Virus record (IMG/VR): IMGVR_UViG_3300006217_002764
Source of the DNA: a virus
Lineage: Duplodnaviria > Heunggongvirae > Uroviricota > Caudoviricetes
Length of the DNA stretch: 64,000 nt
Strand: one strand, 5' to 3'
In this document: in pieces, positions 3,667-49,218 of the stretch
Layout: each line of letters opens with the position of its first letter
Position numbering within the stretch: position 1 is the first letter of the stretch
Translations under genes and position numbers: made by a program
The notes under the pieces: model-generated
Told to the model about the DNA's origin: nothing
Database searches by the model: none
What the model saw: only the letters and a program-made list of their open reading frames with translations

Positions 3667-4365
3667 AACATCAGCTCCTTTCTTTTTCGTTCCAAGAATA
3701 GGGTATGTTCCGGCTTTTCGTGACGGAACATGGGTATTTCACGGAAAGCGGCGGTCACTTTCCCTAGTCTTCGTTATCTGATTCCATCCATTACACGGCA
3801 TTACGTTCCGCTACACGATATTCAATTGGCATTGCATACCGTTGCCCTTCACTAGATCCCATTCCATTCCCATCATCAGATACTCAGACTGTCGCCCCTA
3901 CCATGCGCCCTGCGGCTTATGGAGTACGTGGAAAAGTCCCAAGCCTCTTTCAGGAGCGCATGCTCTTCGTGCATGCTTGGTTCATGACTGGACGTCATGC
4001 CCCATCCTTTCAGTCAGCTTTCCTGATCGTCTTGTTTCTTTTGCTGTTGCCTTTTCTTTGGTTTTCTTGGATTTTCCGGTTCTGTGTTTCGTGTTCCTGT
4101 GTGCTCCTTTTTGTTGATTCGTCGTCTGGTTTTCTGTGATCAGCGCTTCGCTGGTTTTGGGTTCGTCTTTTGTCCGGGGAACAATTCCCCGAACCTCTTT
4201 TTGTGTTCCCTGCTGCTCTTGATGAGATGGGGGCGGGGCGCGATTCCTTTATCAGTATATGCTAGACTGAACTTGTTGGCTAACCGCCGTCGGCGGCACA
4301 TCGTTCCGTTCGTTGAACGCTGTCGGTGGATGCCATATCCATCCACAAACCATAGGAGGAGCCAC

Positions 4366-12156: not shown

Positions 12157-13728
12157 CTAGTTTTGTACTAAGTCATGGTACTTACTAGTTCCGGCCAGTT
12201 TCCCGTTGGCTGGTGCGGGTCGCTGTCCACCCGGAGCGCCTGTAACGTCCGGGACCGCGCCGTCTATCGGCTGGTTCCAGCGTTGCCGGAATCGCCAGTC
12301 GAGTAGTTGGCGGGTGTTCTTGCGCGCCTTGGGGCCCGTGTTGTCCGGATGTTGCCACGAACGTCGTGACTGGATGACACGGGCCGCGTTGATGTCGGCG
12401 TGCATGGTTTTGCCGCAGAAACGGCAAGTGAATCTGGCTCGGCTGGCACGGTTCTTTTTGTCCGTGTATCCGCAGCCGGAGCATTCCTGTGACGTGTATT
12501 GTGCGGGTACCTGTTCAACCGTGATGCCCGCGGTTTCCTGTATGGCTTCGAGTTTGCGTTTCAGTGCGGCGCGGCCGGTGCGGGTGATGAGACGGTTCAT
12601 GCGTTTGCTCATGCCGCCTCCCCGGAAGTCGAGGCGTTCGACCACGAGCGTCTTGACTTGTTCGGGGTCGTGTTTCAGGGCGAGCTGGTTGATGATGCGC
12701 CCCACCTCGTTCTTCACGGTTTCGCGGATGCGTCGGTTGAGGCGTTCGTGTTCCCGGTCGCCTTTTCTTTTCAGGCTGCGTTTGGCGAGCCACTGGTCAT
12801 GCTCGATCAGCTGTTCATCCAACACGCGCAGTCGTTCGAGCATTTTTCTGCCGAACAGGTGTCCGTCGCTGGTGGCGAGGAGTGCGTCGGCCATACCGAA
12901 ATCGAGGCCCACGGTGCGTCCGGTGTCGCGTTGTGCACTGTCGGGGATGTCGAGCACGAGACTCATCGAGAAATCCTTCGTGCCCTTGACGCGATGCAAC
13001 TGGACCACGCCGCACATGCCACCACCCCGTGCTACGGCATCCTCATAGGCGTGCTCGAAATGCGTGTTGGCCAGCAAGCCGACTTCGACAGGCTTTCCCT
13101 TGGTGAGGGTACTGGTCTTGACCCACCATGAGACGCGTGGATGGTCTGTGTTGTCTGGACGTTCCGGCTTGGCGACGATACGGTCCAGCACCAACGTATT
13201 CACGCGCCCCATATCGGGAAACCTGTTGCTCTTGGTGGCTTGTTTGACCAAGAGGCGCGCCAGTTTCAACAGGCGTGGCTCCACGTCCACCATGACCTTG
13301 TTCCTGACCTTCATGCCACACGGTACGAGCACACCGTCCTTGTCGGGTTTCCATGGCAGTTGGAACTCGGGTTTCCACCACGCATGCCACTTGTTGACCC
13401 GCAGCAGCACCAGCTTGTCGTCATCCGTCAGGGACGAATCCGTGACGAGATGGCGTACGCGCAGTTCCAGCAACGCCTGCCATGATAGGAGCTGGGTGCG
13501 TACCATGTTGCCCACGCTTTTCATCTGCCGCGCCGACAAGCCCCCAACGCTTGTCTTGTCCGGCAACGCCACATACAAGGGCAGGTCGGCGCCCTGCTGC
13601 AACCGGACATGCCAGTACGCCATCGTTTTCTTCAACGCGTCCCTGAACGGCGCGAACAGCGCGTTAAGCGCGTTAAGCTTACCTGCGTTTAAGTCGAGGA
13701 TTCCATGCAGATACGCGCGCTTCATCAC
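12157..13728 (-). CDS. tnpB: TnpB-like RuvC/zinc-finger protein (IS607-type OrfB)
   Basis: RuvC motifs GLDFG and VVERLDF, C-terminal zinc finger CSGCG...CRFCG, and DINAARVI. Confidence 0.8.
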   Translation of the reverse strand: MMKRAYLHGILDLNAGKLNALNALFAPFRDALKKTMAYWHVRLQQGADLPLYVALPDKTSVGGLSARQMKSVGNMVRTQLLSWQALLELRVRHLVTDSSLTDDDKLVLLRVNKWHAWWKPEFQLPWKPDKDGVLVPCGMKVRNKVMVDVEPRLLKLARLLVKQATKSNRFPDMGRVNTLVLDRIVAKPERPDNTDHPRVSWWVKTSTLTKGKPVEVGLLANTHFEHAYEDAVARGGGMCGVVQLHRVKGTKDFSMSLVLDIPDSAQRDTGRTVGLDFGMADALLATSDGHLFGRKMLERLRVLDEQLIEHDQWLAKRSLKRKGDREHERLNRRIRETVKNEVGRIINQLALKHDPEQVKTLVVERLDFRGGGMSKRMNRLITRTGRAALKRKLEAIQETAGITVEQVPAQYTSQECSGCGYTDKKNRASRARFTCRFCGKTMHADINAARVIQSRRSWQHPDNTGPKARKNTRQLLDWRFRQRWNQPIDGAVPDVTGAPGGQRPAPANGKLAGTSKYHDLVQN

Positions 13729-17237: not shown

Positions 17238-19874
17238 ATGGTGAAATCTCAACTCATACCAGAAAGCTACATCGCTCCATCCAGCCGATACGGCATGCTA
17301 CGCAGCGCCACCCCGACAGGGGATGTCTGGCTGTACGCTGCCATCCCCCAAATCGAAAATCTGATGGGGGGCACGGACAACCAGCACAGAATCGACGCCA
17401 AACAACAGCTTCAACACTTCTTCGAGGGATTGGCGGCCTTGGTCCCCCACGCGGCGATGCAACGTCGCGACATGCTCAAACGCTACTACCGTGAAATCCA
17501 CTTGCTTACCAGCTCCATGAGCGTGCGATACCGTCCTCCCCGAAGCGAACGTGGCACCCTGATCGGCGAGGAACAGTCCTATGCGTACGGTGACTATTTC
17601 ACCCGCAAACAATTCGCCGTCATCGGGGTCAAGCTCATCCCGTCTGGACGCGCCACCAAACACGACCGACATAAATCCTTGCTGACCCGAATAATGGATT
17701 GGTTCGATTCCGTCGCGTTCTCCATTGCAAACGGCTGCCAACCCTTCGAGGACTACCTAGAAGACAAAGACATCATTGAAAGCATCATGAGCGAAGCCGG
17801 GCTGCGCCCGTTCAGCCGTATGGACGCCACGGAATTCGAACACATTCGTAACCAGATGGAAACATGGTGGGTGAGCCGCCCCACTTCCAACGGGCTGCCC
17901 ATCATCGCCGAATACGATCACGTGCATTTCTTCCCCAATGAAGGACGGTGCCAAGACGCAAAAAACAAATACAACCGTGACGTGGATTGCGTGGATTGGA
18001 ACATCGACGGAGAATACCCCGCCACTGTTTGCGCTCTTAAATCAACCAGTTTCAACCACACCCCCATCGAAAATCCAAGCAGCCTATGGATTGCGAACCT
18101 CATGGCATCCGCGCGTGGGGGTGGTGCAAGCGCCATGGCGGTAAGCGTCCGTGGGATTGTGGAACCGGCGAAAGTGACCGCTCAAGAGATTCGAAGAAAC
18201 AAACGAACATTGGATGAAACAGTCGGCGCCAGGGAGGAAAAAGGCCATGATGCGACCGGCGACATGTTGGACGCCCAAGAAAACCTGCACGAAGGCAATG
18301 ACCTATACCGGTTGCGTAGTGTGCCTCCCACATTGACCGAGACAAGCGTGTTCGCATGCGTCGCAGGGCGAGCTGACAGGGCTGCCCGCAACCTCGAGTA
18401 TGTCCCCTACGTGGATTTTGTCGCATTGAACTCTGCGAACCAGCAGCTCATGGCGTTCAAAAGCATGCAGGCATGTTCGGATGTGCGGCTCATCCCCTAC
18501 GAACGGCATTTGTCTAGCACCTGCTTGTCAGGAGGTGGGGCGGGATCTCTCGCCGTGGCAGGTGATGACGATGGAGCGTTGGTCGGATTCACCGAAGCGA
18601 ACCGTCAACCCGTCTACGTAGGCCCCTCTATCGCATCCGTCAAGGATAAGAGGCCTGCCATGCTCATCATCGGCGACACTGCTTCCGGCAAGTCCATGCT
18701 TATGACGAAACTCTGCTACGAATGGTCTCTCATTAATACGCCAGATGGCAAACGGACTCCCGTCATCCTGTTCAACCCTAAGAAAGGCAATGATTTCGAG
18801 GATGCGGTAACCGCGGTCGGAGGCACTGTGGTCAGATTGGATTCCGAGGTGGCGAACGGCACGTTTGATCCGTTTAATGTCATCCCCAATCAAGATGAGG
18901 CGTTGCAGACCGCGACAACGATGATCGCCGACATCCTCAAAATGTCCAACGACAGTGTGGAGGACGAGCTCGCCGTTTCATGCATGCTTAAATACGGTTT
19001 GAGCCGTGGCATGCAATGCTGTGGCACAATGGTCGCTTGCGCAGCACGGGATTATCTTGAATATCAACGTAAAGGAGTTGATCCAGAGCATCTACCGGAC
19101 GGCAACATCCTCCCGGCAAACACATTGGCCATGGCGGACAAGATTCGCCGCGCATTGAGCACCAACCAGTTCCTGCGGTTGATCTTCGGGACAGAGGACG
19201 GCACGAAACCGTTGCGCGTGTCCGAAGGATGGACGTTGGTGAACGCCGGCAACCGCAACATCATGCCTGAACCAAATTCCCGAGCCAGTATGACCGGACG
19301 CATCCAACAATGGGCGATGTTCATGATCGTCATGGGTTCTTTCAGCGCGGTTGAGGAACGTGATGGCGTTGTAGCTGTAGATGAGGCGTGGTCCATCCTT
19401 GACCCTGATTCGCCGACGTGCGCATTGATTGATCAGAAGCTGCGCACAGCACGTTCCATGCGTGTCACTCCAGTGTTCGCCAGCCAAAAGGTCAAAGAAT
19501 TCATTGGTGCGAACATGGTGGGCGGGTTCAGCCGTGCGTTCTTGCTGTCCATGTCCGACACGTCGGACGAGAAGGCCTCCCCTGCCCGCCTTGCGTTGAA
19601 ACTGCTCGATATTCGTGATGAGAACGACGTCATCCTCAACCGTATGCGCGCTGATGCCGAAAAGGACAACGGTGATCCGAACTGGTCAAGCCTCAAAGCA
19701 TTGTATAATTCAGGCACTCGAGACAATATCCGCGGCTCGGTAGCCTATTTCATTGACGGGGAGAAACAACCGACCCCGATCGAAATCGTCATACCGCCAG
19801 ACCTGTTGCGCAAGATATCAACGAACGCGATAGACAAACGCAACCGTCTCGCCACCCACCAACAAGTGGCATAA
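17238..19874 (+). CDS. VirB4-like conjugative transfer ATPase (large P-loop NTPase)
   Basis: 878 aa. Walker A IIGDTASGKS about 480 aa in, and Walker B VAVDEAWSIL (the DEAW motif typical of the VirB4/TraC family). Two promoter-motif copies upstream at 17165-17232. Confidence 0.55.
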   Translation: MVKSQLIPESYIAPSSRYGMLRSATPTGDVWLYAAIPQIENLMGGTDNQHRIDAKQQLQHFFEGLAALVPHAAMQRRDMLKRYYREIHLLTSSMSVRYRPPRSERGTLIGEEQSYAYGDYFTRKQFAVIGVKLIPSGRATKHDRHKSLLTRIMDWFDSVAFSIANGCQPFEDYLEDKDIIESIMSEAGLRPFSRMDATEFEHIRNQMETWWVSRPTSNGLPIIAEYDHVHFFPNEGRCQDAKNKYNRDVDCVDWNIDGEYPATVCALKSTSFNHTPIENPSSLWIANLMASARGGGASAMAVSVRGIVEPAKVTAQEIRRNKRTLDETVGAREEKGHDATGDMLDAQENLHEGNDLYRLRSVPPTLTETSVFACVAGRADRAARNLEYVPYVDFVALNSANQQLMAFKSMQACSDVRLIPYERHLSSTCLSGGGAGSLAVAGDDDGALVGFTEANRQPVYVGPSIASVKDKRPAMLIIGDTASGKSMLMTKLCYEWSLINTPDGKRTPVILFNPKKGNDFEDAVTAVGGTVVRLDSEVANGTFDPFNVIPNQDEALQTATTMIADILKMSNDSVEDELAVSCMLKYGLSRGMQCCGTMVACAARDYLEYQRKGVDPEHLPDGNILPANTLAMADKIRRALSTNQFLRLIFGTEDGTKPLRVSEGWTLVNAGNRNIMPEPNSRASMTGRIQQWAMFMIVMGSFSAVEERDGVVAVDEAWSILDPDSPTCALIDQKLRTARSMRVTPVFASQKVKEFIGANMVGGFSRAFLLSMSDTSDEKASPARLALKLLDIRDENDVILNRMRADAEKDNGDPNWSSLKALYNSGTRDNIRGSVAYFIDGEKQPTPIEIVIPPDLLRKISTNAIDKRNRLATHQQVA

Positions 19875-20821: not shown

Positions 20822-20971
20822 GGAGTTTCCATGCCTGTACGGGGATGCCCAGGTCGAACCGCCCCTCCCACTCACGCAGGTAGGAGTGTCCTCGCTTGTA
20901 CGGGGCATCCGCAGACCGTCCACCAGACGAATCTCACCAGTCTGGAGTGTCCTCGCTTGTACGGGGCATCC
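20822..20971 (-). CRISPR. mini CRISPR-like array (3 repeats of 28 nt, 2 spacers of 32-33 nt)
   Basis: Identical repeats GGAGTGTCCTCGCTTGTACGGGGCATCC at 20883-20910 and 20944-20971 (plus strand). A degenerate copy GGAGTTTCCATGCCTGTACGGGGATGCCC sits at 20822-20850. Spacers are unique. The degenerate repeat is distal to a conserved promoter motif at 21236-21266 on the minus strand, which gives a leader of about 270 nt. Confidence 0.4.
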
Positions 20972-21235
20972 CCTATCCAAACCGTTGCAAAACCAAGGTT
21001 CTGCAACATTAGGGAACCCGAAAAACTTCAGCTTGCCCCACACGCGTGGACATGACCACCTTGCGGCGGTCAGCTTCAAGTCTCACACCACCAGTTCGAC
21101 GGCTGCTTGATAGGCGTTTCATCGAACCTGTCCAGCAAACCCGAAGGTGGCTGGCACTGGGTTCTCCACGCCCGTTGTCCGTATCCGCCACACTCTCGAA
21201 AAGTGTGGTTCGTGTCCTGCACAAGCCTCTTATGC

Positions 21236-21266
21236 AGCTGTCTTCAGTATAGCACATACATGTTTA
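21236..21266 (-). promoter_or_regulatory. conserved promoter motif upstream of the CRISPR-like array
   Basis: Minus-strand reading gives catgtatgtgcTATACTgaagacagc. Partial match to the element-wide motif. Confidence 0.4.
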
Positions 21267-21482
21267 TGAAGCGGGCCGTCGCGTCAACATCACCCCGTCC
21301 ACGTATTGTTCGACCATCATCGGCTCGTGTATGTACGCTGGCGCCCGTGTTCGCCGTTGTGCATGCCAGTTGGCGCCATATCTTGCGGTGCCATGATGCG
21401 GCTCGCCGTACATACAGTGTGATTTGCACCAGACATGGGAGCCGTGAAATACTGAAACCGTACACAAAACGGGAAGACAACG

Positions 21483-21932
21483 GTGGGAATCATGGCTGAC
21501 GTGTTCGATGTCGCGGCGTACATCCTGAACAAACAGGGACGCATGACGACGATGAAATTGCAGAAACTCTGCTACTACGCGCAGGCATGGCATCTGGTAT
21601 GGGCGGAGAAACCACTGTTCGACGAACCCATTCAAGCGTGGGCGAATGGCCCGGTATGCCCAGAACTGTACCAAGCACATAAAGGGAAGTTCGACATCGA
21701 TGCCCGTGAGCTTCCACAGGGCAACCCGCAGGCATTGACGGATCGAGAACGCAGGGACATCGACGAGGTTCTACGTTTCTATGCGCCCATGGGAGCCTAT
21801 CACCTCAGTGAACTCACCCATCATGAGGATCCCTGGAAGGATGCCCGCGGGGACCTACCGGTAGGGGCCAGATGCAATACGGTCATAACCTTGGCCGCAA
21901 TGGCCGAATATTACGGTTCTATCACTGACTGA
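21483..21932 (+). CDS. Panacea-domain (SocA/GepA-like, DUF4065) protein, putative antitoxin
   Basis: Hallmark KLQKLCYYAQAWHLVW plus downstream conserved aromatic and Pro residues. Confidence 0.65.
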   Translation: MGIMADVFDVAAYILNKQGRMTTMKLQKLCYYAQAWHLVWAEKPLFDEPIQAWANGPVCPELYQAHKGKFDIDARELPQGNPQALTDRERRDIDEVLRFYAPMGAYHLSELTHHEDPWKDARGDLPVGARCNTVITLAAMAEYYGSITD

Positions 21933-22438
21933 TGTCACGCAGACGATCATTGCGGAACCGTGCAAGGCCACAAGCCTCGGCGGAGAGGGTTCCGCAGGCG
22001 GCGCTGAACAGACACGGCGCGTATCGGGTACCCAAGAACGCTGACAGTTTCGACGGTCTGCCGGACAAGCATCATATCGTGTTCCGTTTCGACTGTGTGG
22101 ATATAGAAGCCGATTGCCCGTGGTCGTTGGCGGACATCACCCAGACCGATCACGTGACGTTGCTGCGCAAACTCCGAGAGTTCGAATGCTGCACCCTCAG
22201 TGAAATACTCAGTCCAAGCTATAAGGCTTTCCACCTGTATACGAATTTCAGTGATTGTCCGAACAGGAAGGCGGTGAGGCGTCTGGGTGAGCGCTACGAG
22301 TGCGACAGTGATGCCATCGCACGGTTCCGTCTTGGCGGGACGGAACGGTTGTATGGTTTTCTTGTCGGCCATGAGTTTCATATTCTGTGGTGGGACAAGG
22401 ATCATGAGATCTGGCCGAGCAGGAAGAAGAATACCTGA
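21932..22438 (+). CDS. hypothetical protein translationally coupled to the Panacea gene (candidate toxin)
   Basis: TGATG overlap with the Panacea gene. 168 aa. No recognisable fold. Confidence 0.45.
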   Translation: MSRRRSLRNRARPQASAERVPQAALNRHGAYRVPKNADSFDGLPDKHHIVFRFDCVDIEADCPWSLADITQTDHVTLLRKLREFECCTLSEILSPSYKAFHLYTNFSDCPNRKAVRRLGERYECDSDAIARFRLGGTERLYGFLVGHEFHILWWDKDHEIWPSRKKNT

Positions 22439-22492
22439 AGACCGTTGGGCGTCCACATGGGATGCACTTGCCTCGGCGGTAGAACGCCAAGC

Positions 22493-23521
22493 TCACGCTC
22501 GCATTTTATCGTCGATGCTGATTGGGTCGAGTATGTGCACGACGCTTCCGGTGTTCAGGCTTTTGTAGGTCAGTTGGCGGGTGAATTCGGCGAATGCCGC
22601 GTCCGTGAGGCTTTGCGCGAGCATGTGGTGTCGCATGCCGCGTTTGATGTTGACTTTCTGTATGTTGATGACGGCGTATTGGTCCACAAGCCGGCGGGTC
22701 AATTCGTGCAGCATCGTGTCACGCAACGCTTTGATGCGCTTGTGGATGCGGTTGACCTTGCGGCGTTGCTCCTCGTAGCGGACGCTTCCACGGGCTTTGC
22801 GTGACAGGTCACGGGACGCCTTGCGCAACCCCTCCAACGCCTGCCGGTATGGTCGCGGCAGATCGATCCGGGTACCGTCCGACAGGATGATGTGTTCCAA
22901 GGTGAACACGCACCAGATGTCGGGTTTTGTGTTCACGGGTGGCGCCGGTTCGGGGGTTTCGCACAATAGGCTCGCGTACCATGTGTCGTGTTCGCAACGG
23001 ATGGTGGTGGTTTTCACCTTGCGGCCGGCCACGAGCCGGTGGATGTTGCGCAAGGTGTGCACGCGTCCGATGCGGGGCAGTCTGATGCCATGGTCGTCGG
23101 GGATGGTGATGGCGCTGAATGCGAACGATTTGACCGCGCTACGGGGTTTGAACTTGGGGAAGCCGACGGGGGATCCTTTGCGTTTGCCTGACAGGCTTTT
23201 GAGGAAATTGCTGGATGCTTTGCCGAGGTTGTCGAACGCGCAGTTATAAACCTGTGAGGCGACCTCATCCCACCATGGGGCCAACCGGTCGCGGTTGGCG
23301 CGCCACCAGTAGCCGAGTTTGATGACATTGTTGTCGATTTTGATGAGGTCTTTCTTGCCGACGCCTGATTCGACCTGCGCCTTGCGCTCCTCCAACTGTT
23401 CCTTCATATGTTGCAACGCGGCGTTGTACGCGAAACGTGCCGCGCCCGCGTACATGCGGAACATGCGCTCTTGTACGGGGGTGGGGTCGAGCGGGACTTT
23501 CACCGCCTCATACGTGGTCAT
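22493..23521 (-). pseudogene. tnpB: TnpB-like gene truncated before the zinc finger
   Basis: N-terminal TnpB signature VKVPLDPTPVQERMFRMYAGAARFAYNAAL and RuvC-II region INIQKVNIKRGM...LTDAAFAEF. The ORF stops right after ILDP, where the YTSQ..C..CG zinc finger should follow. Confidence 0.55.
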
Positions 23522-24479: not shown

Positions 24480-25075
24480 GATGCCTCCTTACTGGCGTGG
24501 TCGTACAAATACAATGCGTCCCGTTTGACCTCCACCCGTTCCAGCATGTCGCCCAATTGGCGGGTGTCGAACCCGTGCGAGCAGACCAGGTGGTAGCCGT
24601 TGATAGTGGCGATGACGGTGACCGCGCCCGGCGCCTCACTCTCCTCGTAGATGCGTTCGATGCGCCGGCGCAACGCTTCGGCACGGATCCAGCTTGGATC
24701 GTCCACGTCGAGCAGCCAGTGGCGTTCGGCGCGTTGTTCGGGTTGCATGGCGACGCTCAGGGCCATCTGATCGAGGGTGGCCATGTCCATGTCCGTCGTG
24801 TCGATGAGCACATGCATGAGCGCGGTGCGAGTCTTCGCGTTGTCGCGTGCGTTGACAGACACGTAGAAGCGGCTCACCTCGCCCGGTTTGCCTTGGTTCA
24901 CGAACCGGGTGAACCGGTCGCGCAGTTCGAAGGGTCTCTTGCGGGTCAGGAACGACTCGCACCGTTCTACGAACCCGTCCACCTGTTGGTTGTCCTTGCG
25001 GCGGGAACGGAACAGGACACCATGCAACGGACGGCTGTCGGCGGTGATGCGTTTGGGATGGTAATGGTTGCTCAT
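24476..25075 (-). CDS. hypothetical protein
   Basis: 199-aa ORF. ATGA overlap with the kinase-ligase gene. Confidence 0.45.
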   Translation of the reverse strand: MSNHYHPKRITADSRPLHGVLFRSRRKDNQQVDGFVERCESFLTRKRPFELRDRFTRFVNQGKPGEVSRFYVSVNARDNAKTRTALMHVLIDTTDMDMATLDQMALSVAMQPEQRAERHWLLDVDDPSWIRAEALRRRIERIYEESEAPGAVTVIATINGYHLVCSHGFDTRQLGDMLERVEVKRDALYLYDHASKEAS

Positions 25076-26805
25076 GATGCGGTCTCCTTGTCATGGTGGG
25101 CCAGCCAGTCGGTGACTTGGGTCATGTCCACCGCATCCCGGTCGAATGCGCTTTGATGGTAGACGAGTTGTTCGCGTGGGATCGCAGCCAACACGGCCCG
25201 CACCAACCGCGAGCGTTCCGAATCGTCCTGCGGGACGGGCTTGCCGCGCAGCAGGATGTTCTCCAGTACGGGGCGCAAACGTTTCGACTGGAGGTACAGG
25301 TCGGATTTGACTTTCACCATGTACCCGTCCGCACCGTAGATGACCACGCCCTCGCGTGATGATAGGGCCGCATCATGCAAGGCTTGGCGCAGTCCGGTCT
25401 CGTCCTGAATCATGTACCAGTCTGGACGGTACGGAAACAACGTGTTCAACAGGCTGTCCGCCTGCATGTCGATGGCGAATTCCACATGGTTGTGGATTGC
25501 ATGCAGGTAATACAGGCGTGACTTGTCGTAGTGGATGATGTGCTGGTCGGATTCCGCGTCCACGATCTCACAGGCCACGGTGACATCATGCGCACGCATG
25601 GTCTGCCATATCTCATGCCGCGTGTATGGGTCGGGCAGGTCACGGAGGAACGCTTTCTCAATCAGCGGCGAATAGTCGGTCTGGCCGCTCTTCGAATAGA
25701 AACGGAACACGCCCTCCTGTTCGGTTGCGCCGATCAATCCGAGGAAACCGTTCTCCTTCATCTCCACGCGCGCCGGGTACGTCATATGTTCCAGCACGTT
25801 GTCAAGACTGGTCTGCTTGTTCTCCCCGAGGTTGAAGAACTTGTCGAACCCACGCATCACCACGTCACCGGCGCTGTTGAGGAACAGGCCGCGGGCCTTC
25901 GACGAGTATTCGTCCCATGCGTGGTTGCGGAACGCGTCCCGGGTGAAATTGCACGCCCATAGATCTTCCTCGCCACGTACCGGCATGACGCGCACATTCG
26001 GGTTGTCGCGCATCTGGTCCAACAGGGTCGGTTCCGGTTCGGGGCAGGGCAGGTCGTCCGTGTTGCTCATCCGCCAGTCCAACCACTGTTGCGATGCACC
26101 GTGGCACAGCCAAGTGCAGTACACGTCGGACGGCATGAGTGGATTGTTCACCGCGGGCACACACAGCATGTCAGCGGTGTGGTTGCGGCCGTGCTGGGAG
26201 GGGAGAAACGCTTTGACCATGCGGAACGTGTCCACGCTCAACGGTTTGCATGCCATCCGGTACGCGCCCATCGCGTCGACCAACGCGAATGTGTGGCTGT
26301 GTTCGCTGGGACGCCACATGTGGCGTCCGGCGGGTTCGACGGGCACATGCACCCACTGCATGGGTGTGGAGATACTGTCCGTATACCGTTCGTACTGGGC
26401 CCGCAAATACTCCTCGGGCACCTGGTCGTCCTCGGCGCGATGGCGGTTGCGTTCCAGCAACGTGTCCAACGGTACGGGGAATGCCACGGTTTGCACGTCC
26501 GCGTTGCAGTCGGCGGCCAACCCTACCAGTTCATGCACGCGTTCCATGTTGGCGTTCTGTGCGTCCATGATCACGTTCAGGCCTTTGCGCAACGCGTCGC
26601 AGACCATGGCGTGCGCCGTACGCACAATCAGTTTCTCTGTTGTCGCAGTGCGATGCGCATGGTAGGCGGCCAGACTTCCCGCCGTCATACGTCGCAACCC
26701 ATCCAAGGACACGATGATCGTATCTGGATGGTTCGTCACGCACTTGCGCGCCCATGTGCTTTTGCCGCTCGCGGGCAGCCCGCGCAGGATGACCAACGTC
26801 GCCAT
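25072..26805 (-). CDS. polynucleotide kinase (P-loop) fused to RNA ligase (nucleotidyltransferase)
   Basis: N-terminal Walker A VILRGLPASGKSTWARK (T4 Pnk/AAA_33-like kinase). C-terminal ligase motif I KENG (RVEMKENGFLGLIG). Confidence 0.6.
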   Translation of the reverse strand: MATLVILRGLPASGKSTWARKCVTNHPDTIIVSLDGLRRMTAGSLAAYHAHRTATTEKLIVRTAHAMVCDALRKGLNVIMDAQNANMERVHELVGLAADCNADVQTVAFPVPLDTLLERNRHRAEDDQVPEEYLRAQYERYTDSISTPMQWVHVPVEPAGRHMWRPSEHSHTFALVDAMGAYRMACKPLSVDTFRMVKAFLPSQHGRNHTADMLCVPAVNNPLMPSDVYCTWLCHGASQQWLDWRMSNTDDLPCPEPEPTLLDQMRDNPNVRVMPVRGEEDLWACNFTRDAFRNHAWDEYSSKARGLFLNSAGDVVMRGFDKFFNLGENKQTSLDNVLEHMTYPARVEMKENGFLGLIGATEQEGVFRFYSKSGQTDYSPLIEKAFLRDLPDPYTRHEIWQTMRAHDVTVACEIVDAESDQHIIHYDKSRLYYLHAIHNHVEFAIDMQADSLLNTLFPYRPDWYMIQDETGLRQALHDAALSSREGVVIYGADGYMVKVKSDLYLQSKRLRPVLENILLRGKPVPQDDSERSRLVRAVLAAIPREQLVYHQSAFDRDAVDMTQVTDWLAHHDKETAS

Positions 26806-26832: not shown

Positions 26833-27570
26833 TCAGCGGTGCCGTTTCAGCGTGGGATGCGGCTCCGGCGGGAAGGAGATCAACCGTTCCGCGTCGACGA
26901 AATGCCACAGCACCTGTTCCTCGCTCACCGGCCGCATGTTCCATGCGTCCACACCGATGTTGAGCTCACGCGGGTTGGCGAACTCGAACGGGTCCGTGGA
27001 GTGTGTATGCCCGTGCAGCAGCCAGCTGAAGCCGTTGTCCACGAACGCATACTGGGCGTATTGCGGGTCGCATGCGTTCGTGCTCAACCCGCTGGGCGTG
27101 GGCTGTTCGAAATGGTGGCGGAATTGGAAGTGCGACAAGAGCACGTTGAGTTTGCCGATGGTGGTCGCACCCCCGGTATCGACGGTGACGAACACGTCCA
27201 ACAGTTGCCGCATCTGCGAGTATCCGCAGCGCAGGTCCTCATGGTTACCGAGGATCAGGTGCCGCCTGCCGCGTGGCACGCGCAGCCCTTCGAGGGTTTG
27301 CAACGCGCCGGTCAGGCTTGCCCGTCCGCCGGTGCTCAAGTCCCCCAGCACGTAGAGTTCGTCTTCCTCCCCGACCCGTTCGTTGATGTTGTCGATGATG
27401 GTGTGGTCGTGGCGCTGCCAGTCCACCATGTCAGCGAGTTTCCAACGGTTCGTGCGCGCGTATTCGCGTAGGTCGGCGGCGGCCAGATGCGCGTATTCAG
27501 GTTTTGCGTATCCACGCAACGCGGCCACGAACGGGTGGTGCAAATGCAAATCGGAAGTGAAATACTTCAT
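26833..27570 (-). CDS. calcineurin-like metallophosphoesterase
   Basis: Motifs SDLHLHH, YVLGDLS, GNHE and GHTH. Start MKYFTSDLH at 27570. Confidence 0.7.
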   Translation of the reverse strand: MKYFTSDLHLHHPFVAALRGYAKPEYAHLAAADLREYARTNRWKLADMVDWQRHDHTIIDNINERVGEEDELYVLGDLSTGGRASLTGALQTLEGLRVPRGRRHLILGNHEDLRCGYSQMRQLLDVFVTVDTGGATTIGKLNVLLSHFQFRHHFEQPTPSGLSTNACDPQYAQYAFVDNGFSWLLHGHTHSTDPFEFANPRELNIGVDAWNMRPVSEEQVLWHFVDAERLISFPPEPHPTLKRHR

Positions 27571-44042: not shown

Positions 44043-44115
44043 GTGGGCTGGCGGGATTCGAACCCGCGACCTCCGGATTAAACGTCCGGTGCTCTGTCCT
44101 CTGAGCTACAGCCCC
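44043..44115 (-). tRNA. tRNA-Lys(TTT)-like with unusual G33 (anticodon loop cgTTTaa)
   Basis: Hand-folded. D-stem gctc/gagc, anticodon stem ccgga/tccgg, T-arm gcggg-TTCGAAT-cccgc. 1:72 is G:A. Confidence 0.45.
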
Positions 44116-44256
44116 GCGCATGCCCACCGTCATGATCGGCCGGATATGCGGGATGCGTTCACCATCGCCTTATGGTGTTGCCGAAGATGGCGTGTCTTCG
44201 ACCGTTCCGATCTTTAATAGGATCGTAGACGAGCCTGCACCAAGGCCCGACCTGCG

Positions 44257-44325
44257 TGGGGCGGCCGGATTCGAACCAGCATCCGCTAGCGCTCTGCCAT
44301 TTGAGCTACGCCCCCGGTGGGATGG
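44257..44325 (-). other. truncated tRNA-like element (acceptor, D-arm and T-arm but no anticodon arm)
   Basis: About 64 nt. gggggcg-ta-gctcaaatggcagagc...gctgg-TTCGAAT-ccggc-cgcccc. Confidence 0.35.
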
Positions 44326-44413
44326 CGATCAACCCATCCCCTCCACCTGCACCGATACCGGTGGGGCCCCGTATTGGCGGGGCCATCGGCTCGGGGATAC
44401 CGGTCCGATCGGA

Positions 44414-44484
44414 ACCGGAATCGCACACCGGGATGGAATCGAACCACCGCCTGCGGTTTTGGAGACCGCCGTCCTACCATTGGA
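44414..44484 (-). tRNA. tRNA-Trp(CCA)
   Basis: Hand-folded. Anticodon loop ctCCAaa on stem gcggt/accgc, D-stem gtcc/ggac, T-loop TTCGATT, acceptor with two G-U pairs. Confidence 0.55.
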
Positions 44485-44659
44485 CCACCGGCATATATGG
44501 TGCGCGTCCCTCATGGGCAACGCACCACCGTCCCATGCGTCCGCCTACCATCACGACCTATAGCCACGCCCCTTGATGGGCACAACAACGCCGCTCGGCA
44601 AGCCGACCACACGGGCCCGCATCCAAAACCGTCAACTGGCGTTCCGGTTGGATGCCTCG

Positions 44660-44732
44660 CAGGCGAGGCAGGATTCGAACCTGCAACCCACGGTTCCAAA
44701 GACCGTCGTGCTGCCAATTGCACCACTCGCCT
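44660..44732 (-). tRNA. tRNA-Gln(TTG)
   Basis: Acceptor aggcgag/ctcgcct perfect, D-stem gtgc/gcac, anticodon loop ctTTGga, T-arm gcagg-TTCGAAT-cctgc. Confidence 0.6.
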
Positions 44733-44947
44733 ATACCATGCGGCCTATGCGGCCGCGATGGTCACGGTTTGCGCGCCCAATCACCCGCTGGGCACCCTCC
44801 GCCGGTGCCGGAGGAGACGGACATTGCCCGCCTGTACGCCACCATGCTCTGCTTGGTCTGCCACGACAAGGTGGATGCCGCGGGAAGCCCGTATCATGGA
44901 CCCCTATGCCTGCCCATTGGACGCCGGGCAGGTGGCGTATCCTTTCG

Positions 44948-45020
44948 TGCTTTCGGCGGGATTCGAACCCGCGGCCTTCCGCTCCGGAGGCGGACGCCCT
45001 ATCCACTGGGCCACGAAAGC
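44948..45020 (-). tRNA. tRNA-Arg(CCG)
   Basis: Acceptor gctttcg/cgaaagc perfect, D-arm gccc-agtggata-gggc, anticodon loop ctCCGga, T-arm gcggg-TTCGAAT-cccgc. Confidence 0.65.
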
Positions 45021-45059
45021 GTAGTGTCCAGCGCCGTGCCAACGGCTGTGCACGTGCCT

Positions 45060-45110
45060 GATACGCACCGTGCGTGGAATCGAACCACGATCGGGATCGC
45101 CACCATAACC
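45060..45110 (-). other. tRNA fragment (isolated T-arm hairpin)
   Basis: cgtgg-TTCGATT-ccacg without matching acceptor or D-arm. Confidence 0.3.
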
Positions 45111-45233
45111 CGGTCGCCGCCCCCGCACCCCATACCGGGAGGGGCCGCACCACCAACCACACCGCTTTCATATCAGTACTCACGGCCAGCCGCGTGCGCA
45201 ACCGGTTCACAGCGCTTTCCAGCTCTGGACTCG

Positions 45234-45307
45234 TGCCCCCGGCAGGATTCGAACCTGCGACCGGACGGGTAGAAACCGTCTGCTCTGATCCACTGAGCTA
45301 CAAAGGC
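45234..45307 (-). tRNA. tRNA-Arg(TCT)
   Basis: D-arm gctc-agtggat-cagagc, anticodon loop ttTCTac on stem gacgg/ccgtc, T-arm gcagg-TTCGAAT-cctgc, acceptor with three G-U pairs. Confidence 0.55.
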
Positions 45308-45538
45308 AATCTCTTTCCCCCCGAGCGTATGAGTACGACCACCCGAGGGGAAAGAGCTGGAATGCCGGATTCGTTTTCACCAGCAGCGCCAAGGTACGGT
45401 GCGTGAGCTCCGTTTTAAGCGTACCGTCCGTTAGGTTACTAGCCTGACTGTGAAGCCCGAACGTGCCTTGCCCTCCATACCGTAGGGCGTTTCAGCCAAT
45501 TCCATGGACACCGAGTGATGGCCGTCACCCGGTGCCTG

Positions 45539-45613
45539 TGCTTCCCACGGGATTCGAACCCGTACTGAACTGGGTTTGAGCCAGTCACCTCTACCGGATT
45601 GGGTTAGAGAAGC
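45539..45613 (-). tRNA. tRNA-like with anticodon CAA (Leu codon UUG) but short variable arm
   Basis: Anticodon stem actgg/ccagt perfect with loop ctCAAac. T-arm acggg-TTCGAAT-cccgt. D-stem has one mismatch. Class-I architecture is atypical for Leu. Confidence 0.4.
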
Positions 45614-45712
45614 GTGACCACCTACCCCGCCTGACACGGAGCCGGCCAGCCGTCAGGAAACCAGCCTTCCATAATCGTGGCATCACAGCCGATGATCGAA
45701 CTGCTTCTTTCG

Positions 45713-45785
45713 TGCTCCCCGTGGGACTCGAACCCACAACCCAAGGCTTAAAAGGCCCCTGCTCTACCAATTGAGCTAGAAAAGC
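45713..45785 (-). tRNA. tRNA-Lys(TTT)
   Basis: D-arm gctc-aattggta-gagc, anticodon loop ctTTTaa, T-arm gtggg-TTCGAGT-cccac, acceptor with G-U pairs. Confidence 0.55.
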
Positions 45786-47599: not shown

Positions 47600-48790
47600 T
47601 TATGAGTCGTGCGGATCGCTAACGATACGTTCGGCTTCGTTTCGTATGTTCAGCGCGGCGTTCACATCCCGATCGTGGAGAGTACCGCACTGCGGGCATG
47701 CCCATTCACGTATGGACAGGTCCTTTACCGCACGATTGCGGTATCCGCACGTATGGCATAGTTGGCTGGACGGGTACCATGCGTCCACTCGGATGAATTG
47801 TTTTCCGGCGTGTTCGAGCTTGTAGCGCAACAGGTCGCAGAACATGCCATACCCGTTGTCGAGCGTGCTTTTCGCCAGCCCGCTTTTCGCTGTGCGCCCG
47901 TTCGGTAGATACCTGTTCGGGTCGTGCGGGTCGGTTTTGGGTTTCGGCCTGCGCGTCATACCTTGCAGATTCAAGCTCTCCACGGCGATGGCGTCACAGC
48001 TCGCGACGAGTTTGTTCGCGGTCTTGTGTTGGAAGTCCCGACGACGATTCGCTGTCTTTTCGAACAGGCGGGCGACTCGTATGCGTTGTTTCCTCCAATT
48101 GGCCGAGCCTTTCACCATATGTGCCAGGCGACGTTGCTCGCGCGCCAAGCGTGGTTCCATGTCACGGTAGTATCCGGGGTATTGGGCGTGTTCGCCTTCG
48201 CTGGACACATACAGGCCGTGGGATGCGTAGTCCAGTCCGATGATGTGCGCGGGCGGTGTCGGGTCAGGCATTTGGTTCTCATGCTCGAACAGCACCGTCA
48301 CGATGTACCTGTCGGATCGGGTGTGTTCCACGGTCGCTGATTTGAGTTTCCAGTCGGCGGGAATGTGTTTGTGTTGACGGACGGTGACCCATCCCAGTTT
48401 CGGTAGTCGTAGCCTCCTTGCGTTGTCGGACAGGCGGATGCTGTTGTTGATCGAGTTGGTGGTGTATGCGGCTTTCGAGTGATGCTTCGACTTGTATTTC
48501 GGGAACCCCGCGTGCTTATGGTCGAAGAAGTTCCGGTATGCCTTTTGCAGGGCGAGTTGCGCGTTGCACAACGCCATGCTGTCCACTTCGCGCAGGAACG
48601 GGTATGCGTCCTTGTACATGGCGGGTGTGGGATTGCATGATTCCCACGTGGTCTGATAGTGCGCGATGCGGGTTTCGAGCATGAGGTTGTACACGAACCG
48701 GGTGCAGCCGATGGTGCGGTCGATCATGGCCGCCTGTTCCCGGGTGGGGTATGCGCGGAACCTGACGGCGGTGTGCTGTGTGATGTTCAT
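47600..48790 (-). CDS. tnpB: TnpB (IS605 OrfB, RuvC-like plus zinc finger)
   Basis: N-terminus AVRFRAYPTREQAAMIDRTIGCTRFVYNLML. RuvC motifs IGLDYA, AVESLNLQGM and DVNAALNI. Zinc finger CHTCGY...CPQCG. Confidence 0.8.
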   Translation of the reverse strand: MNITQHTAVRFRAYPTREQAAMIDRTIGCTRFVYNLMLETRIAHYQTTWESCNPTPAMYKDAYPFLREVDSMALCNAQLALQKAYRNFFDHKHAGFPKYKSKHHSKAAYTTNSINNSIRLSDNARRLRLPKLGWVTVRQHKHIPADWKLKSATVEHTRSDRYIVTVLFEHENQMPDPTPPAHIIGLDYASHGLYVSSEGEHAQYPGYYRDMEPRLAREQRRLAHMVKGSANWRKQRIRVARLFEKTANRRRDFQHKTANKLVASCDAIAVESLNLQGMTRRPKPKTDPHDPNRYLPNGRTAKSGLAKSTLDNGYGMFCDLLRYKLEHAGKQFIRVDAWYPSSQLCHTCGYRNRAVKDLSIREWACPQCGTLHDRDVNAALNIRNEAERIVSDPHDS

Positions 48791-49218
48791 ACGTCGCGTT
48801 CCTTGCCTTGGTTTTCGATGTAGCGGCGTATCACTTCGATGGGTGCGCCTCCCGTGGTGAGCAGGCAGAAGCTGCGGCTCCAGAAGTATTCGCGCCACAG
48901 TTTCTTGCGTATTTGCGGATACTCCTGTTTAAGCAGGCGTGAGCTGGCGCTTTTGTACGCGTTGATGAACTTCGACAACTCGCTCTTGGGTTGGGCGCGG
49001 AACAGGACGTGCACGTGGTCGAGGTCATGGTTCCATTCCTCGACGGTTATCCCGTACTTGGGTGCGATGTACTCGAAGATTTCCCGCGCGCGAGCGGAGA
49101 TTTCGTCGTCGAACACTTTGCGCCGGTATTTCGTGACGAGCACGAGATGATAATGCATGAGGAACACCGAATGATGATTCGACTCCAGTTTCACTACTAT
49201 CACCTCGCTTTCAAGCAT
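48787..49218 (-). CDS. tnpA: IS200-type Y1 HUH transposase
   Basis: HUH motifs HYHLVLV and HVHVLF, plus the catalytic Tyr region. ATGA overlap with tnpB. Confidence 0.8.
   Translation of the reverse strand: MLESEVIVVKLESNHHSVFLMHYHLVLVTKYRRKVFDDEISARAREIFEYIAPKYGITVEEWNHDLDHVHVLFRAQPKSELSKFINAYKSASSRLLKQEYPQIRKKLWREYFWSRSFCLLTTGGAPIEVIRRYIENQGKERDV

Follow-up and report, generated by a model that had tools for sequence, protein, structure and literature searches.

The locus and its genes

The locus considered here lies in a 64,000-nucleotide (nt) stretch of DNA from a virus of the Caudoviricetes (IMG/VR record IMGVR_UViG_3300006217_002764), which as a whole is called the window below. The source of the window is a Bifidobacterium-associated phage-like element, and a megablast search of INPHARED with 15 kb of the window as query gave no match. 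A gene pair of the PanAT toxin–antitoxin (TA) type, panA (21492..21932, + strand) and panT (21932..22438, + strand), is convergent with a gene for a nuclease-dead TnpB/Cas12-like protein (22493..23521, − strand), with 54 nt between the stop codons of panT and the dead gene. On the far side of the pair lie a displaced 3′ end of the dead gene, a scaffold RNA and a CRISPR-like array. Taken together, the locus is probably best explained by a PanAT pair of the catalogued cluster T1, which was inserted into the unit formed by the gene and the RNA of a phage-encoded clade of dead TnpB proteins. In the following, P-numbers designate proteins of relatives and L-numbers designate their loci or contigs.

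The panA gene encodes a stand-alone Panacea (DUF4065/SocA-like) antitoxin of 146 amino acids (aa) if translation begins at ATG 21492, and a GTG at 21483 is available as an alternative start, which would yield an open reading frame (ORF) of 149 aa (21483..21932, + strand). The ATG is the likelier start because inspection of the sequence identified a Shine-Dalgarno-like motif (GGTGGGA) 5′ of it; gene calls in two sibling contigs (99% identity) also start at this ATG and give 146 aa. Within the ORF lies KLQKLCYYAQAWHLVW, which had been taken as the mark of a Panacea domain in the original prediction, a reading of the sequence made before any database search. This was confirmed by Pfam (SocA_Panacea, PF13274, E 1.8e-19, 71.1 bits at a cut-off of 25.7), and phrog_1281 was matched at 3.7e-38. 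At the junction with panT, ctgacTGATGtc, the stop codon of panA (21930-21932) and the start codon of panT (ATG, 21932-21934) share one base (TGATG). All three ORFs of the original prediction were found where it had placed them, and its view that an antitoxin-first order and translational coupling fit a TA pair agrees with the one-base overlap and with the conserved pairing described below. As a separate observation, Bifidobacterium italicum Rab10A (L015) carries a second, partial copy of the panA 5′ part at 3925-4110, about 420 nt downstream of its panT, with 79% identity to window 21488-21673.

PanT as a member of PanAT cluster T1

Kurata et al. (2022, PNAS 119:e2102212119, PMC8832971) predicted 1,268 PanAT loci with 88 toxin clusters, and in the entries drawn on here T1 is the first cluster among the predicted pairs. 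One T1 pair in their Dataset S1 is that of B. italicum Rab10A (WP_095613121.1 and WP_133064606.1), in the order antitoxin, then toxin, and with a gap of −1; further T1 pairs of the same order in these entries come from Frankia canadensis, Frankia coriariae BMG5.1 and B. longum subsp. infantis. The closest named relative of the 168-aa PanT of the window is the B. italicum Rab10A protein (L015), with 75% identity across all 168 residues. Of the T1 organisms in these entries, B. italicum (L015), F. canadensis (L039) and F. coriariae (L032) were recovered among the matches of the PanT genome scan and B. longum subsp. infantis was not. On the basis of these sequence relationships, the window pair extends a known, catalogued PanAT cluster by one new member, and the earlier proposal of a candidate new toxin type had to be given up. 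It shares with the T1 pairs a stand-alone Panacea protein encoded first, the −1 overlap, a homologous toxin and a family spread across many phyla, and it differs from them in that the window copy is phage-borne and inserted in another gene, whereas mechanistically no difference is visible in the sequence. An assignment of the partner to the validated PanT of B. ruminantium from the same study was considered and rejected, as that toxin belongs to cluster T25 and is MazF-like.

The PanT family is large as judged by homology searches. A word-indexed search found 27 homologs, down to 26-32% identity, and in a profile search of a library clustered at 50% identity, 2245 clusters passed a threshold of E<=1e-3 and 1263 passed the stricter one of E<=1e-10. 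A genome scan yielded 80 loci in Actinobacteria, Cyanobacteria, Poribacteria, Acidobacteria, Planctomycetes, Chloroflexi, large sulfur bacteria and other groups. A Panacea-like ORF, identified with an iterated PanA profile, lies immediately 5′ of panT on the same strand at 76 of these 80 loci, and three of the four loci without one hold toxin fragments. For four close PanT homologs, the Panacea pair was present in every metagenomic context examined. Thus, the association of partner and Panacea protein, for which a check in other genomes had been proposed, is conserved. In addition, P0012 (274 aa) is a natural PanA–PanT fusion with the Panacea domain on the PanT core, in which the antitoxin stands in place of the basic N-terminal ~45 residues of the toxin.

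Among curated families, NCBIfam NF046006 ("MAG6450 family protein") was matched by 119 of 131 diverse PanT relatives (E<=0.01; best 4.4e-10). The window PanT itself reaches 14.9 bits (E 0.03) at a curated cut-off of 40 and matches the C-terminal motif; NF046006 is a family name without an assigned function. PADLOC detected a weak similarity between PanT residues 66-160 and the C-terminal positions 193-280 (of 284) of NsnC from the Menshen system (PDLC03891, E 6.5e-6). The C-terminus of NsnC may accordingly be a PanT/RelE-like domain. The likeness to Menshen is confined to the domain level, and neither NsnA nor NsnB is present here.

Predicted fold and likely activity of PanT

The partner had been described as having no recognisable fold. 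This is correct at the level of Pfam, where there are no matches, but the predicted structure (predicted local distance difference test, pLDDT, 84.3) has a RelE/ParE-like core, preceded by basic residues ~1-45 that are predicted to be disordered. Sequence searches of the PDB with PanT gave no match. The top structural match of the model was RelE of Thermus thermophilus with a score of 8.0 (83/89 residues, 2.5 Å), followed by HigB (6.8), RelE3 (6.6), YoeB (6.1), YafQ (5.9) and ParE (4.6-5.6), and the RelE/ParE superfamily accounts for nearly all of the top 25 matches. In 131 sequences, R139, D155 and H158 are invariant and D57, R117, G142, W153, W154 and P162 are conserved to at least 90%; R139, D155, H158, R117 and W153-W154 are located in the C-terminal sheet and tail. 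Compared with RelE, HigB, YoeB and YafQ, PanT is only 9-15% identical and lacks a match to their sequence families, it has an extra basic, disordered N-terminus of ~45 residues and an N-terminal strand and loop (FRFDCVD...CPWS), and it is partnered by a Panacea protein and not by RelB, HigA or YefM.

From this ranking and the conserved arginine, aspartate and histidine residues, PanT is probably an RNase of the RelE/HigB/YoeB type that would cleave messenger RNA, most likely on the ribosome, and thereby halt translation. The stand-alone Panacea protein would bind PanT and neutralise it directly, as in a type II system; direct neutralisation was described for other stand-alone PanAs by Ernits et al. 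(2023). PanA would be made first from a shared transcript by stop-start coupling, and on a phage the pair would most likely serve as addiction, exclusion or abortive-infection cargo.

A second, less likely possibility is that the pair does not form a classical addiction module but works as a defence or exclusion switch carried by the phage, whose Panacea domain senses a trigger, for example a rival phage, and frees the toxin, leading to abortive infection. A sensor role of Panacea is favoured by Ernits et al., and the slot occupied by the pair holds other cargo in sibling phages (two uncharacterised genes in L107, type I restriction-modification-like genes immediately beyond it, on the upstream side of the broken effector gene, in L094). 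Furthermore, the pair adjoins a prophage integrase in B. longum-type contexts, and the PADLOC match to the NsnC C-terminus, weak as it is, points in the same direction. However, no trigger is known and PADLOC gave no match for PanA; moreover, such a switch is compatible with the TA reading and not opposed to it.

A role of PanT as a gyrase poison of the ParE kind, or as some other protein of the RelE/ParE fold without RNase activity, is unlikely, as the RNase members RelE, HigB, YoeB and YafQ lead the structural ranking. H158, D155 and the conserved arginines presumably resemble acid-base sites of the RelE/YoeB/YafQ type, which is likewise counted against a gyrase poison. The supporting information of Kurata et al. 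(PMC8832971), in the entry for the tested T1 toxin, carries the label "mRNase".

A nuclease-dead TnpB/Cas12-like gene

The gene on the opposite strand encodes a protein of 342 aa that matched only HTH_OrfB_IS605 and OrfB_IS605, with no zinc-ribbon/TNB domain (PF07282), and that aligns with positions 4-344 of the NCBIfam profile IS607_TnpB, which has 431 positions in all. The aspartate of RuvC-I is replaced by phenylalanine, the glutamate of RuvC-II is replaced by glutamine, and the zinc finger is deleted. Its nearest relatives without a zinc ribbon are P0176 (87% identity, 341 aa), P0177 (77%, 340 aa) and P0178-P0182 (71-74%, 355-358 aa), the latter including a protein of B. animalis subsp. 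animalis. More distant proteins, P0186-P0190 (53-60% identity, 394-400 aa), carry the zinc-ribbon domain. According to alignment A2, the whole short clade has CVFTL or CVFGL in place of GVDLG in RuvC-I and IQKVN or IQQVN in place of IEDLN in RuvC-II, it lacks 31 residues with the CxxC...CxxC motif, and DRD is changed to ERH or absent. In the same alignment, P0186 (394 aa) keeps the aspartate, the glutamate, DRD and CxxC...CxxC. When the window and three relatives were searched by tblastn with full-length proteins, no trace of the zinc finger was found. Pairwise ratios of nonsynonymous to synonymous substitution rates (dN/dS) within the short clade are 0.17-0.32, which indicates purifying selection, and the protein was therefore kept by selection after the nuclease site was lost.

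The short gene occupies one slot in the phages, after genes for a metallophosphatase, a polynucleotide kinase (Pnk)/RNA ligase, a 199-aa protein and a 136-aa protein, sometimes with a gene for 176-184 aa in between. This syntenic slot was found in six phage lineages, and the five others have no TA cassette beside the gene. TnpA was not called at the dead-TnpB loci, where no search was aimed at transposon ends. L199, the locus of P0186, was also considered as sharing the phage synteny and was rejected, as its 137-aa upstream gene is not homologous to the 136-aa gene of the phages. With the dead-TnpB protein as query, IMG/VR yielded a single distant locus, and a metagenome scan returned mostly canonical TnpBs at ~40% identity together with one closely related, truncated contig.

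Judged by these relatives, the "tnpB" is not a remnant of an insertion sequence (IS) but belongs to a phage-encoded clade of nuclease-dead TnpB/Cas12-like proteins. It had been proposed that the gene loses its zinc finger exactly at the boundary of the TA pair. The zinc finger is indeed absent; however, relatives without a TA cassette (71-87% identity) share the 31-residue deletion and the catalytic substitutions, and so the insertion did not cause the loss.

Scaffold RNA and CRISPR-like array

Beyond the PanAT pair, a scaffold RNA resembling an omega or tracr RNA, which starts with AGCUGCAUAAGA, is located at 21040..21239 (− strand). It includes a match to Rfam Transposase-2 (RF03015) at 21049-21120 (− strand; 57.9 bits at a gathering score of 42.7, E 3.9e-10). 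The RNA of ~200 nt is conserved in six loci, for which RNAalifold predicts 55 pairs, 12 of them with compensatory changes. The Transposase-2 motif lies 122-133 nt past the stop codon at the dead-TnpB loci L101, L104, L194 and L197, which have no TA cassette, and at the active L199; the distance is 381 nt in L112 and 1373 nt in the window, where the motif is found beyond PanAT. It also occurs at the 3′ end of the canonical TnpB loci L116, L120 and L122. Just upstream of the scaffold RNA, an extended −10-like element, TGcTATACT (21246..21254, − strand), is conserved in L112, L194 and L199 and might be the promoter element of the RNA and the array; it was not listed by a consensus promoter scan. 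A candidate anti-repeat in the scaffold, picked by eye, showed only partial complementarity and no covariation between lineages and was dropped. Two other TnpB-like genes of the window have an intact zinc ribbon, one of 432 aa with HTH, OrfB and TNB domains (47600-48898, − strand) and one of 523 aa with OrfB and TNB domains (12157-13728, − strand), and no Transposase-2 RNA was detected beside either of them.

The scaffold RNA is followed by a CRISPR-like mini-array (20822..20971, − strand) of 28-nt repeats, GGATGCCCCGTACAAGCGAGGACACTCC, with a period of 61 nt. Repeats are located at 20944-20971 and 20883-20910 and, in degenerate form, at 20822-20849 (− strand), and the two 33-nt spacers between them (20911-20943 and 20850-20882, − strand) are unrelated to each other. 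The number of repeat units varies between relatives: there are three in the window, two in its siblings L094/L095 (99% identical), which is one 61-nt unit fewer, and, at the same place, four in L101-106, seven to eight in L112, four in L194/195 and two in L199. The array of L199 adjoins the gene for the catalytically intact 394-aa P0186, which is 60% identical to the dead protein of the window. In a motif scan, such arrays were absent from 80 canonical TnpB loci and from PanT loci.

Spacer 1 of L199 (L199 4978-5010) matches window 27074-27105 (− strand) in a metallophosphatase-like phage gene at 29/32 positions (E 2.4e-5), and the related phage L196 contains a match as well. This is the only spacer–protospacer match found in all. 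The 5′ flank of the protospacer reads ...TTTCGAA (...GAA, then C), and this AA-type flank is compatible with the protospacer adjacent motif reported for Cas12n, 5′-AAN. Because the L199 spacer matches the window, an active homologous system appears to target this phage family.

The repeats with their 61-nt period could also be iterons or other protein-binding repeats of a neighbouring replication region, such as the one marked by RepA_C in L107 and L112. The L112 array indeed lies just past the 3′ end of the RepA_C gene, the spacers of the window have no detectable targets, and neither cas1 nor cas2 was seen. We nevertheless consider iterons improbable: the intervening 33-nt segments are mutually unrelated, the repeats always come after the TnpB-like scaffold RNA, including L199 and L101 where no RepA_C was called, none were present at the 80 canonical TnpB loci, and a spacer of L199 matches this very phage at 29/32 positions next to an AA-type 5′ flank.

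Insertion of the PanAT cassette into the gene–RNA unit

A tblastn search with P0180 residues 316-352 located the 3′ end that the dead-TnpB ORF originally had on the other side of the PanAT cassette, at 21264..21375 (− strand). This displaced piece encodes ...YIHEPMMVEQYVDGVMLTRRPAS followed by a stop codon, which corresponds to the C-terminus of the B. animalis protein, HVHEPMIVERHVDGMVLARQLAS; compared with the relatives, its frame is shifted by 2 nt. It consists of one copy (copy B) of a duplicated stretch of ~60 nt together with a tail. The other copy (copy A, 22520..22579, − strand) is in frame and forms the present C-terminus of the 342-aa protein. The two copies, one on either side of the cassette, are 72% identical over 61 nt.

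Relatives are collinear with the window on both sides of the cassette. In blastn alignments, window 22548-23512 corresponds to L101 4977-4010, and window 21046-21375 corresponds to L101 5276-4946. L112, which has no TA cassette, holds a 200-nt segment instead of window 21258-22452, and its similarity to the copy A region extends over 125 nt (91% identity), continuing for ~45 nt past the present stop codon as far as window 22453. Measured against B. animalis prophages, the PanAT block accordingly spans about 21376-22547, and against L112 it spans 21258-22452; blastn homology to other PanAT loci is limited to the two ORFs (21481-22438/9). The last ~9 codons of the window gene differ from the tails of the 355-358-aa forms, and L112 shares the ending of the window gene.

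Other phages carry other genes at this place. In L107 (1580-2829), the sequence diverges at window 22548, where two uncharacterised genes encode proteins of 211 and 213 aa with no Pfam match, and neither the scaffold RNA nor an array was found there. In the sibling phage L094 (6562-12030; 99% identity), the N-terminal two-thirds of the dead TnpB are replaced, and what is left of the C-terminal part belongs to a fused ORF of 748 aa. The Methylase_S and N6_Mtase genes beside this ORF point to a type I restriction-modification-like cassette. The dead-TnpB locus has the look of a hot spot at which defence cargo is carried. We conclude from the alignments that the PanAT cassette probably interrupts the 3′ end of a gene that was already dead, and that this end acts as a slot for cargo, which would be PanAT here, the two uncharacterised genes in L107 and, beside a broken gene, the restriction-modification-like genes in L094. 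The events may have taken place either as an insertion with duplication or as a recombination between two phages. The original prediction had suggested that the TA cassette inserted into, or was captured by, an IS; the cassette does lie inside a tnpB-like unit across which relatives without it are collinear, but the gene is not an IS remnant.

An ordinary IS605/IS607 tnpB that was beheaded when the TA pair landed and is now a pseudogene, as the first reading had it, would account for an ORF that ends 54 nt from the cassette, for a gene that is separated from its RNA and for the further disruption of the gene in L094, but it is very unlikely, as the relatives at 71-87% identity had no zinc finger and no catalytic residues without any TA cassette, tblastn found no zinc-finger remnant, dN/dS is 0.17-0.32, and the gene is single-copy in a fixed phage synteny with no TnpA seen.

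Several findings weigh against the overall explanation of a T1 pair inserted into the unit of a dead-TnpB clade. The window PanT remains under every curated family cut-off, and no Pfam family, and no RelE/ParE sequence family, was matched by it or by any of the 131 relatives. The consensus scan for a promoter or terminator of panAT gave nothing above background. The sole T1 pair tested by Kurata et al. (PMC8832971), as far as the entries used here go, is that of Clostridium cadaveris (WP_074844973.1 and WP_074844970.1), which is labelled "toxic; failed to neutralise; mRNase" in Escherichia coli, and because its cognate PanA failed to neutralise the toxin, the TA status of T1 is half validated. 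No targets of the window's own spacers were found in the window, in the fetched loci, in IMG/VR (21-nt seeds) or in INPHARED (blastn, chance-level matches only). Finally, since the C-terminus of the window protein differs from the 355-358-aa forms and the N-terminal two-thirds are replaced in L094, the dead TnpB may be decaying in this lineage.

Comparison with known RNA-guided systems

The window protein resembles TnpB of IS200/IS605/IS607 elements in the scaffold RNA of the omega type past the 3′ end of its gene, here displaced to 1373 nt, and it differs from TnpB in lacking an intact RuvC D-E-D triad and the zinc-finger/TNB part. Similarities also exist to TldR proteins, TnpB-like nuclease-dead repressors with fliC-, csrA- and oppF-associated clades (Wiegand et al., bioRxiv 10.1101/2023.11.30.569447). 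Like these, the protein is derived from TnpB, has a mutated RuvC site and has lost the C-terminal zinc-finger/RuvC part, is phage-borne with a scaffold RNA beside the gene, and is under selection. In contrast to TldR, the unit has a multi-spacer repeat array and not a single fixed guide, and no promoter target was identified.

With Cas12n (type V-N/V-U4, RdCas12n 9J09) and TranC (LaTranC 9JFO), the system has in common a TnpB-sized protein, a CRISPR array and a scaffold that is long and tracr-like, whereas the window protein is catalytically dead and has no TNB or zinc finger. The intact relative P0186 matched ISDra2 TnpB at 1e-49, RdCas12n 9J09 at 1.8e-44 (partial) and LaTranC at 1e-26; it is closer to ISDra2 TnpB than to RdCas12n or LaTranC. 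The "tnpB" might belong to a miniature type V (Cas12n/TranC-like) CRISPR system as a functional offshoot that is encoded by phages and has lost its nuclease, the active bacterial version of that system having a spacer against the same phage family, but this remains a doubtful proposal at present. In such a setting, the dead protein, the scaffold RNA and the variable mini-array could form an RNA-guided repressor of genes of the host or of rival phages. In the alternative role of a decoy, the dead protein could compete with the homologous active system for its RNAs. The dead protein may be a repressor, a decoy or, in the split copy of the window, a decaying gene.

The PanAT pair itself is of low interest, and the dead-TnpB system split by the cassette is the part worth following. 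With this pair, the first-listed and widely distributed PanT cluster gains a phage-borne copy. T1 is notable as a cluster in which no pair is known to be rescued by its antitoxin, and for this reason, together with a confident RelE-like model, the copy of the Bifidobacterium phage is a reasonable test case. The locus further provides a case of a TA cassette that would have landed inside an RNA-guided system on a phage, and it reveals a clade of nuclease-dead TnpB/Cas12-like proteins that are under selection, with a scaffold RNA and a CRISPR-like array, and with an active relative that apparently targets the same phages. If functional, this clade would link TldR-type regulators, the transition from TnpB to Cas12 and phage counter-defence.

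Other features of the window

Seven transfer RNA (tRNA) genes are clustered at 44043-45785 (− strand; Lys twice, Trp, Gln, Arg twice, Leu), and a weak eighth tRNA match was reported by Rfam at 44256-44315. Such a cluster is typical for a larger phage genome. An AAA_10 ATPase of 878 aa is encoded at 17238-19874 (+ strand) and kept in related phages. The Pnk/RNA ligase gene of the syntenic slot (25072-26805, − strand) codes for a fusion protein of 577 aa (phrog_8238, 2.4e-63; phrog_505, 4.5e-28) that is likewise kept in related phages and could serve in the repair of cleaved tRNA.

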